From NCBI GenBank assembly GCA_028704885.1, contig JAQWEN010000001.1:427999-491998 (forward strand): a stretch of 64,000 bases of DNA, given 5' to 3'. The notes beneath the pieces were generated by a model. The model searched no databases and was not told where the DNA came from. It saw only the letters and a program-made list of their open reading frames with translations. Numbering within the stretch: position 1 is the stretch's first letter; each line of letters opens with the position of its first letter. This DNA is from Candidatus Shapirobacteria bacterium. Its GTDB lineage: Bacteria > Patescibacteriota > Microgenomatia > UBA12405. The translations under genes were made by a program, and so were the position numbers. This document shows, one piece after another, positions 45-27,100 of the stretch.

Positions 45-1013
45 TTATTTTTTGATTATTTTTTTAATATTGCAATATGTTTGCCACAATTTAAAATATT
101 TGGATAAAAAAATTTTATTTAATTTAATTTCGTCGTTGGAAATACTTCTGTTTATTTCTTCAATCTTTTTAATTAAATCTAAATTTTTTGATTGGTAGTA
201 AGATATCTCTTTATCTATTTCCTTATATATTTTTTCTAACTTTAGGTTTATTTCTGCTTTATAAGTTTGACAAACATTCAAATTAAATGTTTTATCGTAA
301 TAATGGGACCAGATGTCTGGAAAACAAAAAATATTATTTTGTTGAGGTTTTAGAAAGAGGACTCCAAGACCATGAGAATGGAAAAATTCTAGCGAAGAAT
401 ATTTGTTTTTCAGTTCATCCCAAAGTTTATAGACACCAAAGTCTTCTTTTTTTTCCGCAATATCATGAAACATGACAATACCATCTTTTTTTACCTTAGA
501 TATCCAATTATTAAAATCATGCCTAACTGCTTCGTAAGTGTGTAATCCGTCTATGTGTAATAAATCTATTGAATTGTCTTCAAATTCTAAAAGAGCATCG
601 TCAAAATATTTTTTAATTAAATTTATTTTTAGTGATTTATAAAATTTATCTTTTATTTCTTTAACTTCATTTAAAACAGTATTGTCATAAAATCCAGCTT
701 GTTTATCCCCTTCCCAACTATCGATTGCATATAAATTGCAGTCTAATTGCTCATCTTTTACTGCTTGGCACATAGAAAAGAAAGAAGTGCCTTTATGCGT
801 TCCTAATTCAACTATAGTTTTTGGTTTAATATTTCTAACTAAATCATAGGCAAAATATTTATGTCCTGCCCATGGCCAGTCTAAATCTGGAAAGATTGCT
901 TCATATTCAAATTTTGGATTATAAAACTCAAATTTTGTTAATATTTTTATATTATTGTCCATTTGAATATTTTTTAACTGCTGCGGTGGGGGTGGTGTCG
1001 CATTGAATTTCAT
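45..1013 (-). CDS. Class I SAM-dependent methyltransferase (Methyltransf_24-like) with a ~70-aa C-terminal coiled-coil-like tail
   Basis: Motifs IVELGTHKGTSFF (SAM-binding glycine-rich loop), AIDSWEGD and LLHIDGLHTYEAVRHDFNNW...DGIVMFHDI. The C-terminus EINLKLEKIYKEIDKEISYYQSKNLDLIKKIEEINRSISNDEIKLNKIF is heptad-like. It lies immediately downstream of wzt in the same operon. The first 17 aa overlap the wzt 3' end, and an internal ATG at 960-962 (MDNNIKIL) is an equally plausible start. Confidence 0.6.
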   Translation of the reverse strand: MKFNATPPPPQQLKNIQMDNNIKILTKFEFYNPKFEYEAIFPDLDWPWAGHKYFAYDLVRNIKPKTIVELGTHKGTSFFSMCQAVKDEQLDCNLYAIDSWEGDKQAGFYDNTVLNEVKEIKDKFYKSLKINLIKKYFDDALLEFEDNSIDLLHIDGLHTYEAVRHDFNNWISKVKKDGIVMFHDIAEKKEDFGVYKLWDELKNKYSSLEFFHSHGLGVLFLKPQQNNIFCFPDIWSHYYDKTFNLNVCQTYKAEINLKLEKIYKEIDKEISYYQSKNLDLIKKIEEINRSISNDEIKLNKIFLSKYFKLWQTYCNIKKIIKK

Positions 1014-1782
1014 GGTGGTTTAGATAGATGGCACGAGTGCAGAATTTTTCAACTTGGCCAAGGCTATGGGAAACAAAAATTATAGTAATATCTTTTGATT
1101 TTTTAAATTCTTCCATTTTGGCAAAACATTTTTCTTGGAAAGCAGAGTCACCTACCGCAAGAATTTCATCGACAATTAAAATTTCTGGATGAACGTGAAT
1201 AGCCACGGCAAAAGCCAGGCGCATATACATACCTGAAGAATAATGTTTGACTGGTTGGTCTATAAATTCCCAAAGTTCAGCAAAATCAACAATTGATTTG
1301 TAACTTTGATCGATTTCTTTGCGTTTAAGGCCAAGAATGGCACCATTTAGATAAATATTTTCTTTACCAGTTAGTTCTGGATGGAAACCGGCACCAAGCT
1401 CGATTAGAGGTGAGATTTTGCCCTTGACATATACTTTTCCACTAGTAGGCCACATAACACCGGCAATGAGCTTTAGAATAGTAGATTTACCACTGCCATT
1501 GGGGCCGATAATGCCAACCGTCTCCCCTTTTTTTATTTCAAAACTAATGTCATTTAGGGCCGTAAAACTTTCACTAGTTTTTTCGCCGCGAATTAGAGCG
1601 GGAAGAAATTCTTTGAAGGTTTTATGACTTAATTTGCTAAATTGTTTGGAAACATGATCAAATTTAATGACTATTTGATCTGGTTCGCTAGTACGCTGGT
1701 TCGCTAGTACGCTGGAACTTTGAAGTTTTGGTTCGCTAGTTCGCTGGTTCGCTGGAACTTTTGAACTCTGTTTATTGATCAT
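952..1782 (-). CDS. wzt: ABC transporter ATP-binding protein for a polysaccharide exporter (Wzt/TagH/KpsT-like), lacking a C-terminal carbohydrate-binding domain
   Basis: Walker A GIIGPNGSGKSTILKLIAG, the ABC signature YSSGMYMRLAFAVAI and Walker B ILIVDEILAVGD. It sits next to an ABC-2 permease. About 35 aa precede the usual N-terminal IVIKFDHVSKQF motif, and that extension is encoded by a tandem DNA repeat. Confidence 0.8.
   Translation of the reverse strand: MINKQSSKVPANQRTSEPKLQSSSVLANQRTSEPDQIVIKFDHVSKQFSKLSHKTFKEFLPALIRGEKTSESFTALNDISFEIKKGETVGIIGPNGSGKSTILKLIAGVMWPTSGKVYVKGKISPLIELGAGFHPELTGKENIYLNGAILGLKRKEIDQSYKSIVDFAELWEFIDQPVKHYSSGMYMRLAFAVAIHVHPEILIVDEILAVGDSAFQEKCFAKMEEFKKSKDITIIFVSHSLGQVEKFCTRAIYLNHHEIQCDTTPTAAVKKYSNGQ
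1681..1768. repeat. Degenerate tandem repeat with 16-nt periodicity (units tggttcgctagtacgc x2, tggaactttgaagttt, tggttcgctagttcgc, tggttcgc, tggaacttttgaactc), lying inside the 5' end of wzt
   Basis: Read directly from the sequence. It encodes the 48-nt-periodic peptide PANQRTSEP...ANQRTSEP in the Wzt N-terminal extension. A related copy lies at 2142-2170 on the other side of the four-helix-bundle gene. Confidence 0.7.
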
Positions 1783-2134
1783 TGTTATATTTTACCTTAG
1801 TAATAAAAGAATTTAGCATTTTAGCTAATGATTCATATTGATCTAAAAGAGCTTTTGCTTGTGATTTTTCAATATAACCTATGTCTTGGCTAAAAAGTAT
1901 AAAATTTTGAGTTTCATAAAGAGAACCTTTGGACTGATACAGGAATTGAATAAATTCTTTGTTGCCCTTACGTCCAAAACCTTCGGCAATATTAGCAGAG
2001 ATAGAAGTGGATGCTCTTTGTAGTTGAGATATTATTCCAAATATTTCTGATTTTGGAAATGTTTGGGTTATCTTATATATGGAAATAGCTAGTTTATTAG
2101 CTTCTTTCCAAATGTTTAAATCTGTAAAATTCAT
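1772..2134 (-). CDS. Four-helix-bundle protein of the 23S rRNA intervening-sequence protein family (TIGR02436/PF05635-like; same family as DGR Avd)
   Basis: 120 aa with the family hallmarks W.EA..L...IY..T..FPK.E..G...Q..RA..SI.ANIAEG..R....EF..FL..S.GS..E.Q. Its stop overlaps the wzt start by 11 nt. It is bracketed by copies of the GGTTCGCTAGTAC(G/A)CTGGTTCG repeat. Confidence 0.8.
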   Translation of the reverse strand: MNFTDLNIWKEANKLAISIYKITQTFPKSEIFGIISQLQRASTSISANIAEGFGRKGNKEFIQFLYQSKGSLYETQNFILFSQDIGYIEKSQAKALLDQYESLAKMLNSFITKVKYNNDQ

Positions 2135-2141
2135 GTTAATT

Positions 2142-2170
2142 TAGTTCGCTAGTACACTGGTTCGTTAGTT
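2142..2170. repeat. Single copy of the tagttcgctagtacactggttcgttagtt repeat, upstream of the four-helix-bundle gene
   Basis: It matches the 1681-1712 units at about 25 of 29 positions and forms the right-hand bracket of the four-helix-bundle gene. Confidence 0.5.
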
Positions 2171-2190
2171 TTTAATTTTTTAATTTGTAG

Positions 2191-2222
2191 TAGACTAGAA
2201 GTCTAGAGAACTAGAGCTCTAG
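2191..2222. promoter_or_regulatory. CTAG-rich segment with a perfect 12-nt palindrome CTAGAGCTCTAG (2211-2222); candidate operator or protein-binding site
   Basis: tagactagaagtctagagaactagagctctag carries 5 CTAG tetramers in 32 nt. It lies between the wzm stop and the four-helix-bundle gene start. Confidence 0.3.
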
Positions 2223-2234
2223 CGCACTAAAAAT

Positions 2235-3035
2235 CTAAATGTTATCGGCGAAGATTTTTTCGCGAGATTTAAAATAACGAAGACCAAATAAAAGAACAAC
2301 AAAGGAAAGAATAGTGGCAATTATGAGACTAGAATATTTTGGAACTCCACCGCTAAGAATAACTTGACGATAAGCATTAGTAATAACAGCCATAGGATTT
2401 AATTGAAAAATGATCTTATATTTTGCAGGAATCATGTCGGCTGAGTAAATTATCGGGGTGACATACATCCATAAAAGTAAAATCATAGATAATAAATATT
2501 GAACGTCGCGATAAAGAAGATTGGCAGCAGCAAAGAAAAGAGATAGACCGAGAGTGAAAATTTGTTGAATGAAAAAGATTGGAATAACCCAAAGAATATT
2601 AATATTTATGGGCATGTGATAGGCAATCATATAGATGATTAAAACTATGTTGGCAAAAAGGAAATCAATTATTTTGGCGATGATAGTGGAAATTACTAAT
2701 ATAGTTCGGGGAAAATAAATTTTAGTAATTAAACCACCGGCACTAACCAGAGAAGCAGAGGCAGAAGAAAGAGAATTGGAAAAAAGAGTCCACGGTAAGA
2801 GGGCGACAAAAAGAAATATAGAATAAGGAATGTGTCCCGAAGAATAAGTTGGAATGCGCATAATAATGGAAAAGGCAAAAGACATAACCAACATTTGGGC
2901 CAAAGGATTTAAAATTACCCAAAAATAACCAAGAATGGATTGTTTATAGCGGGCTTTAACTTCACGGCCAACCATCTGCCAAAGTAATTCGCGCCATTTA
3001 TGAATAGCTTGGATTTCTTTTATAAGCGATAACAT
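2235..3035 (-). CDS. wzm: ABC-2 type polysaccharide exporter permease (Wzm/TagG/KpsM-like)
   Basis: N-terminus WRELLWQMVGREVKARYKQSILGYFWVILNPLAQMLVMSFAFSII is the classic ABC-2 permease signature. The protein is 266 aa with about 6 TM segments and sits upstream of wzt. Confidence 0.8.
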   Translation of the reverse strand: MLSLIKEIQAIHKWRELLWQMVGREVKARYKQSILGYFWVILNPLAQMLVMSFAFSIIMRIPTYSSGHIPYSIFLFVALLPWTLFSNSLSSASASLVSAGGLITKIYFPRTILVISTIIAKIIDFLFANIVLIIYMIAYHMPININILWVIPIFFIQQIFTLGLSLFFAAANLLYRDVQYLLSMILLLWMYVTPIIYSADMIPAKYKIIFQLNPMAVITNAYRQVILSGGVPKYSSLIIATILSFVVLLFGLRYFKSREKIFADNI

Positions 3036-3074
3036 GCATTAGTTTATCAGATTTCAGATGTCAGATATTAATTA

Positions 3075-3141
3075 AAACCCACTCGCCCTTCGGGCACCCT
3101 CTACCCTCTCCGGGGTATCTATGGACCTTGACAAGGAGGGC
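3075..3141. other. GC-rich structured intergenic element E1 (AAACCCACTC ... CCCTC/GAGGG hairpin ... CTT), with an inner GCCC-TTCG-GGGC tetraloop hairpin
   Basis: About 60% GC in a genome that is about 28-30% GC. It lies between co-directional minus-strand genes, and a related element sits at 5219-5262. Confidence 0.35.
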
Positions 3142-4215
3142 TTAATTATTTTTTACTCTCGATTGACGGAAGAGATTGATGGGATTAATAATAAATTTTA
3201 AAATGATTATGGAAAAGATAATGGAAAAAATAGTGGTGGCGAGACCTAAAAATTGATGTGGCAAAGCAGTGAAATGAGTTAAAATGTCGATGATTAAAAA
3301 ATGAGAAATGTAGACTGGAAATGAAAGTTCGCCGATAAATCGGTCAATTTTATTGTTTTTGAATAAATTGAAGATAAAGGGAATAAAAATAAAACTAAAT
3401 AAGAATAAAACTAATTGTTTGGTGCGTTCATGAGGTAAAAATTGGTAATAAATTAAAAAAGAGAAATAAAAAAGGAAACTATAAATGGATAATTTTTGGA
3501 AATCTTTTGTTTTTAGATATCGATAAATTCGATACATCAAAATTCCTGATAAAAAGAAAATTAATTCAGTGGGAAAAAAGCGATAGTTCCATGGATCATG
3601 ATTTAATCCCCGGCTATACAAAAATAGTCTTAATCCAAAACTTAGAGACATTATTAATAGTAGATACCGATTTTTGAAGCGATTTAAAAATGGAGCCAGA
3701 AAATAAAAAAATAGTTCAAGGCTTAGTGTCCAAGCTTGACTGATAAAGAAAAAATTATAAATTTCTGGTTTAAATAATCGGAAATTGGAAGTAAAAAAAA
3801 GAGAACCGGTGGTGGTGTTTAGGCCAAAAAAAAGCAGAATATCTTGACCAAAAATAATCAAATTACTGGTGATAAAAGTTATAAAAGTGAAAGGATTTAA
3901 GTTGTAGTTTTTGTTAAATAAAGCAAAGACATTTGGAGAATTTTGGTTTAAATAAAAATAAATTAGCTCAAAAATTATGGCAAATATTAAAACCAGCCAG
4001 TAAGTAGGAAATATTTTTAAAAAACGATTGCTGATAAATAATTTATAGTCAGATTTTTTGTTATATTTTTCAGTTAAAATCAAAGCCATGTAAAAACCGG
4101 AAATCATAAAGAAAACTTCGACAGCCATTTGGCCTTGAATAAAATTGAGGCCAAAAATTGGACTAGTGTGGGCAGTGATAACGGAAATAGCGAGTAATAA
4201 TCTGATTAAACCCAT
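3142..4215 (-). CDS. Acyltransferase family 3 (OafA/YrhL-like membrane O-acyltransferase)
   Basis: N-terminus MGLIRLLLAISVITAHTSPIFGL...VEVFFMISGFYMA (the R..L..A.V..H...VFF.ISGF hallmark) and about 10 TM helices over 357 aa. Confidence 0.75.
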   Translation of the reverse strand: MGLIRLLLAISVITAHTSPIFGLNFIQGQMAVEVFFMISGFYMALILTEKYNKKSDYKLFISNRFLKIFPTYWLVLIFAIIFELIYFYLNQNSPNVFALFNKNYNLNPFTFITFITSNLIIFGQDILLFFGLNTTTGSLFFTSNFRLFKPEIYNFFFISQAWTLSLELFFYFLAPFLNRFKNRYLLLIMSLSFGLRLFLYSRGLNHDPWNYRFFPTELIFFLSGILMYRIYRYLKTKDFQKLSIYSFLFYFSFLIYYQFLPHERTKQLVLFLFSFIFIPFIFNLFKNNKIDRFIGELSFPVYISHFLIIDILTHFTALPHQFLGLATTIFSIIFSIIILKFIINPINLFRQSRVKNN

Positions 4216-25167: not shown

Positions 25168-25971
25168 TTATTTTCCAGTGTTAATTCTCATGTCTAATTC
25201 CGGATTATAGATCCATTTTCTTTTATTTTTATCGTCGTAATAATTTAGGATCCTCAGTCGATAAAAAACAGACATAGATTCCATAAAACAACTGTAAATA
25301 ATTTTAAGACCAGTGGCGTGGGTTAAACTACTAAAATCATAAGTTAATTTGATTGGGGCTTCATATATTTTAGTAAAACCTAATTTATTGGCGACAGCTA
25401 ATATCTCCAGATCAAAAGCATAATTTTTTACCATAAGACGAGGAAGAACTTTCACTAAAACTGGACGTTTAAATATTTTTAAACCAGCTTGAGTGTCATG
25501 AACATTGATGCCTAATAAAAATTTAGAAATTATATGGGCTCCAAAACTGACTATTTTTCGACTAGGGGGATATTTAACCATGGAGGCTGGATGTCGTTTT
25601 GAGGCAACGATTATATCGGCGTTATACCATTCCATGTGTTCTAGGACTAAAGAAATGCCGTTGGGATCGATTTCCATACCAGAATCGATAAAAGCGATAT
25701 AATCCCCTTTTGTTTTGGCCATGCCATACCTGACAGCATAACCTTTACCGTGATTGTGCTTGTACCCAAAAACTTTTAAATTTGGCAGTTTAATTTTTTT
25801 GATCTCGGAAAATGATTTATCAATAGAAGTGCCATCAACAACAGCAATAATTTCATAGTCATAACGAATTTGTTTTAAAGTTTCATTGATATTCAAAAGG
25901 TCTTGTTTGATGGTTTTTTCTTGTTTATAAATGGGAATAATAACTGACAAGAAATGATTGTTATTTTTCAT
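25168..25971 (-). CDS. Polyprenol-phosphate sugar synthase (GT2, Dpm1/GtrB/ArnC-like)
   Basis: LSVIIPIYKQE...YEIIAVVDGTSIDKS, GKGYAVRYGMAKTKGDYIAFIDSGMEIDP and HDTQAGLKIFKR (the DTQCGFK-type motif). Confidence 0.75.
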   Translation of the reverse strand: MKNNNHFLSVIIPIYKQEKTIKQDLLNINETLKQIRYDYEIIAVVDGTSIDKSFSEIKKIKLPNLKVFGYKHNHGKGYAVRYGMAKTKGDYIAFIDSGMEIDPNGISLVLEHMEWYNADIIVASKRHPASMVKYPPSRKIVSFGAHIISKFLLGINVHDTQAGLKIFKRPVLVKVLPRLMVKNYAFDLEILAVANKLGFTKIYEAPIKLTYDFSSLTHATGLKIIYSCFMESMSVFYRLRILNYYDDKNKRKWIYNPELDMRINTGK

Positions 25972-27100
25972 CCTTTAAAATTAAATTATAAAGGGCAAGA
26001 GTTTGAATGGCAGTATATTTCCAATCAAAATTTTTAGCGTGAATTAGGCCAAGCTTAATATATTTTTGGCGAAGATCATTATCATTCCAAAATTGAACTA
26101 GAGATTTTTCTAAATCTTTTTGAGAATGAGGATTAAATTTTAAACCATTGGAATCCATAATTTCATCTAAACAAGAGTCTTGACTGTAAGCAACCGGACA
26201 ACCAGATTTCATGGCTTGGACAAGAGGTAGACCAAAACCTTCAGCAAAAGACGGTTGACAATAAATGGTGGCCAAATTATAAAAATAAGGTAAATCTTCA
26301 TCTGGGACAAAACCTGGAAGGATTAGTTCTCTAGTTCGCTGGATCTCTGCTTCTCTAGATTTAGATTGAAGCCAAAGAAGATCTTGTGTCCAAGGATGAT
26401 TGGGAACATCTTTTTTGACAGCAGAAGAACCAACAATAACTAAGGGAAATTTTAATTTTAAACAAGCCTTAACAAGGGTCGGAATATTTTTATTCCAATT
26501 AATATCACCGACAAATAGGATAAATTTTTTGGGTAAGTTATATTTTTTTTGAATTTCGGTTAATTTTTTAGAATCAGAAATAACTTTAAAAGTTGGATCG
26601 GCGGCTAAGTGGGTAACGAAAATATTATTTAAATTGTATTTAGTAATTTGATTAATAATATTTTTAGAATAATGAGAAACAGTTAAGATTTTATCGACTT
26701 TTAAAAGTCGATGTTTTTGAATAAACCATTTTATTTCACCTTTGATTCCGACTGGAAAATGAGATTTAAATTGACGAGGAATGAGGTCATGAACAGTAAC
26801 AACGGTTGGAATATTGGTTTTTTTGGGAAGAGTTAATTTAAATGGGTCGAAATAAGGATAATGAATAAGATCATAGGTATTAGATCTTAGATCGTTGACG
26901 TTGGTTATTAAATCAATTTGGTAATTTTTATAATTAGGATTGGATTTTATTTCGGTTTGAAGTGCCGAAATTAGATTGGAAGTGTAATAGCCGACACCCC
27001 GAACAGCATTACCGTCTTGAGTTGGAGAAATATCGATTGCGATTCTTTTAATTTTCAATTTTAAATTTTTAATTTTTAATTTATTTTTTATCCCAATCAT
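25961..27100 (-). CDS. Glycosyltransferase family 4 (GT-B)
   Basis: EGFGLPLVQAMKSGCPVAYSQDSCLDEI (E-x7-E). Confidence 0.75.
   Translation of the reverse strand: MIGIKNKLKIKNLKLKIKRIAIDISPTQDGNAVRGVGYYTSNLISALQTEIKSNPNYKNYQIDLITNVNDLRSNTYDLIHYPYFDPFKLTLPKKTNIPTVVTVHDLIPRQFKSHFPVGIKGEIKWFIQKHRLLKVDKILTVSHYSKNIINQITKYNLNNIFVTHLAADPTFKVISDSKKLTEIQKKYNLPKKFILFVGDINWNKNIPTLVKACLKLKFPLVIVGSSAVKKDVPNHPWTQDLLWLQSKSREAEIQRTRELILPGFVPDEDLPYFYNLATIYCQPSFAEGFGLPLVQAMKSGCPVAYSQDSCLDEIMDSNGLKFNPHSQKDLEKSLVQFWNDNDLRQKYIKLGLIHAKNFDWKYTAIQTLALYNLILKDEK

Follow-up and report, generated by a model that had tools for sequence, protein, structure and literature searches.

Comparison of a 64-kb stretch of Candidatus Shapirobacteria DNA (candidate phyla radiation [CPR]; the whole stretch is called the window below, has a G+C content of 29%, and supplies all coordinates) with related loci indicates that a small gene for a four-helix-bundle (4HB) protein, lying between the exporter genes wzm and wzt, belongs to a cassette of the type known from 23S rRNA intervening sequences (IVS). 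This cassette, made up of the 4HB open reading frame (ORF) and repeat arms of its own, appears to have entered the junction as one insert, to have resided there for a long time, and to have given wzt a new translated 5' end. The insertion, its boundaries and age, the selection acting on it, the co-option of one arm, and the arm architecture of the family as a whole all emerge from sequence comparison, and we are highly confident of what the cassette is and of its history. The mechanism proposed for the arms, involving an RNA stem, RNase III, and a decoy, is tentative and in our judgment has somewhat less than an even chance of being right; the explanation as a whole, stem and decoy included, we regard as fairly probable. 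To our knowledge, the "IVS protein" 4HB family is large and widespread and has had no function assigned to it since the 1990s; discussion has treated it for the most part as an oddity of fragmented 23S rRNA.

The cassette and the wzm-wzt junction of relatives

The features of the junction, in their order on the minus strand, are the following.

wzm, 2235..3035, minus strand: ABC-2 permease of 266 aa (PF01061, E 1e-14; NF050109 Wzm/RfbD, E 2.6e-21)
Left arm A, 2187..2237, minus strand: octamer array with six TAGs at exact 8-nt steps; degenerate reverse complement of arm B
B', 2142..2166, minus strand: proximal upstream copy (AACGAACCAGTGTACTAGCGAACTA) in direct orientation relative to arm B, between arm A and the 4HB start
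4HB gene, 1772..2134, minus strand: 120 aa, 23S rRNA IVS-protein family
4HB/wzt overlap (ATGATCAATAA), 1772..1782, minus strand: wzt start codon inside the last 4HB codons
Right arm B, 1681..1768, minus strand: octamer blocks at 1731-1754 (CAGCGAAC type) and 1683-1714 (CAGCGTAC/TAGCGAAC), with a 16-nt spacer
wzt, 952..1782, minus strand: TagH/Wzt-like ABC ATPase of 276 aa (PF00005, E 4.5e-24)

The 4HB protein is a full-length member of PF05635 (132.2 bits against a cutoff of 33.8; E 1.1e-38; profile positions 2-106 of 106) and TIGR02436 (126.6 bits against a cutoff of 24; E 4.4e-37), exceeding both family cutoffs, and its nearest solved relative is XCC0516 (PDB 2GSC, five chains; E 7e-15). Its neighbors form the PF01061/PF00005 pair of a Wzm/Wzt exporter, flanked by glycosyltransferase, epimerase, and methyltransferase genes; the best NCBIfam matches of Wzt, to the TagH and Wzt/RfbE models, are both under the equivalog cutoffs and align with the protein only from residue 38-39 on. 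These profile searches and the ORF positions confirm an earlier reading of the window made from its letters alone (the sequence-only reading), which had placed a 4HB gene between wzm and wzt with its stop codon overlapping the wzt start: the 4HB TAA lies at 1772-1774 and the wzt ATG at 1780-1782, and the two ORFs share 11 nt. A wzt start within the end of the 4HB gene suggests translational coupling, with which this geometry fits. A promoter and terminator scan of the junction gave nothing beyond shuffle expectation, which argues for cotranscription without proving it.

The case for insertion comes from five relatives with an empty junction (L097, L102, L103, L106, and L109; comparison loci carry L numbers), found by a metagenome scan with the Wzt core. 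Their Wzm and Wzt are 82-85% and 81-86% identical to those of the window, which makes them no more distant than the occupied relatives, and in all five, wzm ends in TAA and is followed after 2-7 nt by the wzt ATG, with no 4HB gene, no repeats, and no N-terminal extension; Wzt begins 4-6 residues ahead of its conserved core, and in L097 the synteny extends over cofD-acyltransferase-wzm-wzt. The view that the gene interrupts a normally contiguous wzm-wzt pair is thus supported by five syntenic empty sites, and the comparison of Wzt orthologs that the sequence-only reading had proposed found the extension missing there. Because the empty sites hold neither gene nor repeats, the gene and all three arrays arrived as one insert, whose ends coincide exactly with those of the junction, namely, the stop codon of wzm on one side and the first conserved codon of Wzt on the other. 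The 4HB orthologs at 60-89% identity all occupy this same junction, in the order wzm-4HB-wzt (L004-L016, L105, and L180), 4HB-wzt (L176), or wzm-4HB-NYN-x-wzt (L181), and arrays equivalent to arm A are found in all occupied orthologs. The wzm stop codon, TAA in 5/5 empty relatives, is a TAG in phase with the array in the occupied ones, the exception being L016, where wzm ends in TAA and the array follows.

The sequence-only reading had pictured an insertion that duplicated a target or a repeat and left direct repeats on both sides. A direct copy does sit upstream of the gene (2142-2166), and a cleaner one is present in L180. The repeats are not a duplicated target, however, because the empty sites hold no unit that could have been duplicated; moreover, the direct upstream copy is lacking in the occupied loci L004, L016, L176, and L181, the copies are multiunit tandem arrays rather than one duplicated target, and the flanks are inverted throughout the family (see below). 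We give this model hardly any credence.

The cassette does not appear to be a newcomer. Identities to the window proteins, for 4HB and Wzm, respectively, are as follows.

L015: 4HB 89%, Wzm 83%
L004: 4HB 87%, Wzm 84%
L007: 4HB 82%, Wzm 76%
L011: 4HB 79%, Wzm 78%
L016: 4HB 63%, Wzm 63%

Over the occupied loci, 4HB identity roughly follows Wzm identity, and Wzt follows less closely (72% in L016). The dN/dS of the 4HB gene against its orthologs is 0.06-0.10 (unsaturated pairs), which indicates purifying selection on the protein. The low dN/dS and a divergence that tracks Wzm together argue that the cassette is an old resident and its protein functional, and the recent insertion event implied by the sequence-only reading is at odds with orthologs at 60-89% identity sharing one junction; the cassette lineage has kept its place while the host genes diverged to 63% identity. 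In a neighbor-joining tree of concatenated Wzm and Wzt (Kimura distances, with bootstrap), a 14-locus clade with 100% bootstrap support has junctions of all three kinds (4 occupied, 5 empty, and 5 with other cargo), and further occupied lineages (L007/8 and L016) lie outside it, with support of 86-98%. Repeated loss, repeated gain, or allelic exchange would fit this patchy presence alike, support within the 14-locus clade being poor. Together with the arm changes described below, one junction offers a natural series that runs from the empty site over the canonical cassette to the cassette whose arm has been co-opted.

This junction is a hot spot of insertion among relatives (L096, L098-L101, L110, L111, L113, and L181), where the alternative cargo is a GNAT acetyltransferase gene, a DUF4230 gene, or one or two NYN-domain genes; L181 holds both a 4HB cassette and an NYN gene. 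The junction NYN genes are followed by G+C-rich elements of ~50 nt with terminal complementarity (GGGAG...CTCCC), a DUF3800-II RNA motif (RF02961; 71 bits, gathering score 43) lies downstream of the NYN gene in L181 (3725-3786), and a DUF3800 gene stands immediately upstream of wzm in L004. In L111, the wzm stop is directly followed (~1085-1120) by a four-unit octamer array (CTAGTTGT CCAGTAAT CTAGTAAT CCAGCTAT) similar to the L180 right arm; two NYN genes come next and a 4HB gene is lacking, and the array looks like a relic arm left after loss of the 4HB ORF. The records of L015, L016, and L021-L023 are titled "uncultured Gammaproteobacteria bacterium" despite CPR-type loci near-identical to the Shapirobacteria operon, and the titles of these metagenome-assembled genomes are probably a taxonomic mislabel.

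As for the surroundings, the genes within 6 kb of the cassette encode CofD, a TPR protein, an acyltransferase, methyltransferases, glycosyltransferases, and an epimerase. A tblastn search found no second 4HB copy in the window, and PADLOC returned no match. Rfam gave no rRNA or other match in the window at the gathering threshold, and on 1500-3400 with E up to 5, it gave only weak miRNA-precursor models, which reflect the hairpin between arm A and B' described below. Between the acyltransferase gene and wzm (~3060-3140, minus strand), a G+C-rich island of ~75 nt stands out from the 29% G+C genome; it has no Rfam match, folds no better than shuffles (z -0.19), and holds a short terminator-like hairpin (3084-3096).

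The repeat arrays and the 5' end of wzt

The motif to which the sequence-only reading drew attention, GTTCGCTAGTACRCTGGTTCG, occurs at 1683, 1699, 1731, and 2144, that is, only around the 4HB gene, with 0 occurrences expected from 100 shuffles. The flanking repeats are therefore real, but the 16-nt periodicity ascribed to them is not: the basic period is 8, with the unit YAGNNNNC (Tandem Repeats Finder gave 9.5 copies at period 8 and only 2.2 perfect copies at period 16), and the apparent 16-nt period is CAGCGTAC alternating with TAGCGAAC. The earlier inventory was also incomplete, having overlooked arm A. The TAGs of this arm lie at 2237, 2229, 2221, 2213, 2205, and 2197, with a degenerate TAC at 2189; its first unit is the wzm stop codon itself (TAG, 2235-2237), it supplies stops in all three frames, and over 40 nt, it shares ~65% identity with arm B in reverse complement. 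What had been taken for an upstream direct repeat is B', which matches the motif with zero mismatches at 2144-2164. Among the orthologs, B' is present in L007/8, L011, L105, and L180, as it is in the window; a remnant is left in L015, and L004, L016, L176, and L181 lack it. The octamer unit itself varies among close orthologs (CCAGCGAA, CCAGAGCA, ATCCAGTT, and CTAAAGNN).

Elsewhere in the 64 kb, only one YAGNNNNC run reaches at least three units, a three-unit run at 26326-26349 (minus strand; CAGAGATCCAGCGAACTAGAGAAC) inside a GT4 glycosyltransferase gene (25961-27100). It shares an exact 12-mer, CCAGCGAACTAG, with the right arm of the cassette (2 matches, 0 expected) and encodes QRTRE in the frame in which Wzt has QRTSE; the run falls inside the match to the Glycos_transf_1 domain and does not have the look of an insert. 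Tandem repeats of period 7 or 8 at 26868 and 28510 were set aside as unrelated and lie inside coding genes.

On the wzt side, the downstream array falls within codons 1-34, which are translated to MINKQSSKVPANQRTSEPKLQSSSVLANQRTSEP, the array itself corresponding to about residues 5-34 of Wzt; the conserved core begins at residue 35 (1680). By this comparison, Wzt residues 1-34 derive from the cassette, and the repetitive N-terminal extension seen by the sequence-only reading is confirmed. In the window, no further in-frame ATG, GTG, or TTG lies between the wzt ATG and the core. Where wzt directly follows the cassette, the start that overlaps the 4HB stop is the first in frame in 9/9 occupied loci, which upholds the claim that the insertion reshaped the wzt 5' end, and is the sole start before the core in 7/9; the frame is preserved through 4-10 repeat units in all nine. 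The right arms of these read-through loci have CCAG, not CTAG, in units whose triplet sits in the wzt frame, and in the window, TAG-containing units of the right arm are confined to the two frames other than that of wzt. Each change from CTAG to CCAG produces one A-C mismatch per unit in the pairing of the arms.

L128 (579-1189) likewise has a 4HB gene at its wzm-wzt junction, a distant one (41% identical) with heptamer arms (GATGAGT/ACTCATC), and there too, the right arm is translated into an N-terminal extension of Wzt (...STHLPINSSTHTLLNPSTHPPIHPST); translation of the arm into Wzt either arose more than once or is very old. For annotation, the locus explains low-complexity Wzt N termini and the repeat-encoded C-terminal tails of some 4HB proteins in CPR genomes, and it exemplifies how a host gene can gain a new translated 5' end from the repeat of a selfish element.

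Repeats in the 5' coding region of wzt could also be read as a simple-sequence contingency locus, in which gain or loss of 8-nt units switches the exporter by phase variation. The unit length is not divisible by 3, each of L004 and L015 has four perfect CCAGCGAA units, and the number of units ranges from 4 to 10 between lineages. However, all examined assemblies are in frame (nine lineages, several samples each), and counts are constant within a lineage, being identical across samples within L004-6, L007-10, and L011-14; furthermore, arrays are also present upstream of the 4HB gene and flank 4HB genes regardless of the gene downstream. The empty sites and the uniformly in-frame arrays therefore contradict phase variation as well as target duplication, and we consider phase variation very unlikely.

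Arms across the PF05635 family and their proposed role

The family sample comprised 80 diverse PF05635 loci (one genome per species) plus L095, with 79 usable gene flanks, and spanned Rhizobiales, Bacteroidota, Acidobacteriota, Saccharibacteria, other CPR groups, and some archaeal-labelled records. Duplex energies of whole 100-nt flanks were too noisy to discriminate, so k-mer and local-alignment tests were used. Most of the sampled ORFs are flanked by short tandem arrays, the upstream array being the reverse complement of the downstream one (for example, GTGAATG/CATTCAC, GTGATTC/GAATCAC, and TAGGGCAG/CTGCCCTA). The two flanks share a median of 7 inverted 7-mers, versus 1 in shifted controls (p 4e-23), and a median of 1 direct 7-mer, so that the prevailing relation between flanks is inverted and not, as in the sequence-only reading of the window, direct. 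Local alignment of the upstream flank with the reverse-complemented downstream flank gave a median score of 29, with 35/79 pairs scoring at least 30, whereas the best of 274 shifted controls reached 24; in these 35 pairs, the typical arm is ~31 nt long with 88% complementarity and ends ~21 nt short of the ATG, and the partner arm begins ~2 nt past the stop. Of 30 arms with clear periodicity, 28 have a period of 7. Arms match within a cassette and differ between cassettes: same-locus scores are 26 (L180), 50 (L181), and 43 (L128), and cross-locus scores are mostly 8-17, the exception being the L181 left arm against the L016 right arm (36). Operon junctions are the usual habitat of the PF05635 genes sampled, co-oriented ORFs of at least 100 aa lying within 250 nt on both sides at 53/80 loci.

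To judge from this locus and the 79 comparison flanks, many copies of the 4HB gene outside rRNA seem to be accompanied by repeat arms as well. In the literature, we found only the Coxiella IVS heptamers when looking for repeat arms around non-rRNA 4HB genes; coverage was incomplete, and an earlier description is possible. It is a speculative extension, and one we hold to be rather improbable as a general rule, that PF05635 4HB genes as a class are self-contained junction cassettes, distributed over many phyla, with inverted arms whose period of 7 or 8 avoids a multiple of 3 by design. If true, a left arm that stops every frame and a right arm readable in any would make it harmless for such cassettes to settle between operon genes or fuse into them; rRNA intervening sequences would be one habitat of the class, and the window would be an end state in which the host gene has adopted a cassette arm.

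Several copies in the sample merit separate mention. In Mesorhizobium, Phyllobacterium, Pseudaminobacter, and relatives within Rhizobiales (L035, L046, L052, L075, L081-L083, and L089), a 4HB cassette with GTGAATG/CATTCAC arms occupies one conserved junction, read as nuoC|nuoD from the downstream N terminus MTEHSVRNFNINFGPQHP alone, and the upstream TGA stop is the first repeat unit. In L095 (3001-3393; protein P0068), a 48%-identical 4HB gene lies between rpsR and efp, with the unit CCAGCGAAC/CCAGCGTAC, and its C terminus runs into the arm (...SPKPANQRTSN); other repeat-encoded 4HB tails read QPQSQPQSQPQ (L038 and L091) or TFINHKS (several CPR copies).

The two arms differ in their stop codons. 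For 54 arm pairs, the counts are as follows.

Stop trinucleotides: left arms 187, right arms 93
Reverse-complement stop trinucleotides: left arms 87, right arms 179
Stops in all three frames: left arms 28/54, right arms 9/54
No stop in any frame: left arms 3/54, right arms 19/54

Per locus, left-arm stops outnumber reverse-complement stops in 37 cases and are fewer in 7 (Wilcoxon p 4e-6), and a stop is found in 28/30 left-arm units, where unit composition predicts 22.4 (p 0.003). As a period of 7 or 8 is no multiple of 3, the stops rotate through all three frames. Such a difference between the strands suggests a constraint that acts on translation and not on DNA alone.

The functions that we propose for the arms, namely, a double-stranded RNA stem, an RNase III site, insulation against ribosomes, and downstream coupling, draw on their anatomy and on the rRNA IVS precedent, in which the IVS is excised from the transcript by RNase III (PMC4990558). 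In canonical copies, the arms would pair in the transcript to form a stem of ~30 bp around the ORF, like the 23S rRNA IVS stem cut by RNase III, and the many stops of the left arm would bring incoming ribosomes to a halt ahead of the stem. L181, in which wzt does not read through the arm, may represent this state: its arms (TTTAGNNC and its complement) give a duplex of -38.9 kcal/mol (z -10.7), and a 32-bp arm stem enclosing the ORF is predicted in both the minimum free energy (MFE) and centroid folds (z -4.6). In the window lineage, the right arm would have become coding, and the change from CTAG to CCAG in the wzt frame, with its A-C mismatches, would have let the long-range pairing decay; the partner of arm A would now be B', close by, and the wzt 5' end would stay available for coupled translation. 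The predicted local hairpin between A and B' (2138-2236) reaches -22.7 kcal/mol (z -2.8), with 2/200 shuffles as good, and the duplex of A and B reaches -28.3 kcal/mol (z -2.3); at the other read-through loci, the z values of the arm duplex range from -1.0 to -6.9. We suggest that B' may serve as a decoy, so that the wzt 5' end stays unpaired. Arms, stem, stops, and coupling together provide a concrete and testable anatomy for the function of the cassette.

Several observations weigh against this mechanism. The arms of the window pair weakly, and the MFE fold of the 581-nt cassette has no long-range stem, so that the stem model draws on relatives and on analogy. An RNase III cut within the coding sequence of wzt would do harm, and cleavage is therefore not the role of the arms in the window. 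B' is absent from L004, L016, and L176, although wzt reads through the arm in these loci. Much of the stop enrichment stems from the G/A/T-rich composition of the left arms, as the expectation of 22.4/30 makes plain. Arm mismatches show no bias for G-U over A-C (36 versus 31), and pairing of the sense-strand RNA is thus not favored over a symmetry at the DNA level; inverted repeats can also stay alike by gene conversion, without selection for pairing.

In a rival reading, the arms would be the terminal inverted repeats, at the DNA level, of an element that moves or homes to gene junctions, and they would serve as sites of recognition or synapsis for a recombinase acting in trans or for the 4HB protein itself, not as RNA structure. 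Mobility of IVS has long been suspected (PMC4990558), and the lack of a G-U bias, the position of the arms exactly at the cassette boundaries, the mixture of occupied, empty, and other-cargo junctions within the 100%-bootstrap clade, and the presence of the distant L128 cassette in a like junction would all suit such an element. Nevertheless, no transposase or nuclease is encoded within 6 kb, the cassette is single copy in the 64 kb, and the examined homologs of at least 60% identity, all at the same junction and tracking host divergence, show no sign of recent movement; unit sequences that vary between cassettes would be awkward for a sequence-specific recombinase, and the strand-asymmetric stops indicate a translation-related constraint. 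On balance, we think this reading unlikely.

The tandem units might alternatively be binding sites of a pentameric 4HB protein, at about one subunit per unit and 4-5 units per arm, which would serve autoregulation or control of wzt translation. The nearest solved homolog is a homopentamer (2GSC; PMC4990558), about four units per arm are typical (median arm, ~28-31 nt with a 7-nt period), the 4HB protein is under strong purifying selection, and the CCAGCGAAC unit also flanks the 48%-identical 4HB gene of the rpsR-4HB-efp locus (L095). Against this, the units change among close orthologs, as listed above, while the protein is still 60-89% identical, and we accord the binding-site model only a small chance, below that of the mobile element. 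The IVS-type cassette with putatively stem-forming arms, of which one has become coding in the window lineage, is the explanation that we favor.

Comparison with known systems

The 4HB protein shares its fold with Avd, the accessory protein of diversity-generating retroelements (DGR), and matches PF22296 (20.1 bits) and phrog_3206 (E 1e-7) weakly. Identity as a DGR Avd was rejected, the scores being under the Avd cutoffs (NF033474, 20.1 bits against 80; PF22296, 20.1 bits against 40); the sequence-only reading was right that no reverse transcriptase accompanies the gene, none being found within ~6 kb (no search for template or variable repeats was made). A transposable element with target-site duplication was likewise rejected on the unit-free empty sites, the lack of a nearby transposase, and the inverted flanks of the family.

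The contingency loci of Haemophilus, Neisseria, and Campylobacter resemble the window in that a surface-polysaccharide gene begins with short tandem repeats whose unit length is not divisible by 3. They differ in that no out-of-frame variants were seen for the wzt array and in that its repeats belong to a neighboring cassette and recur, inverted, on the other side of that cassette. Free-standing selfish genes, such as the homing-endonuclease genes of phages, and the NYN, GNAT, and DUF4230 cargo of the wzm-wzt junction are likewise small, wedged between translationally linked genes, and patchy in distribution; the 4HB cassette has no nuclease domain and has repeat arms, which they lack.

The closest likeness is to the 23S rRNA IVS with an S23p/4HB ORF found in Leptospira, Coxiella burnetii, Xanthomonas, and Brucella, which encodes a PF05635/TIGR02436 protein, as the window does, and whose complementary termini enclose the ORF in the manner of the cassette arms. 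The inverted arrays that flank the family as a whole would match the stem-forming arms of these IVS, a relative of the window cassette (L181) is predicted to fold a long stem around its ORF, and the Coxiella IVS has variable-copy tandem heptamers just upstream of the ORF (PMC4990558). The window cassette departs from this pattern in lying at a protein-coding operon junction rather than in an rRNA helix and in having octamer arms that pair poorly, one of them translated in the neighboring gene. Its ORF is under purifying selection, whereas that of Coxiella has been reported to be decaying.

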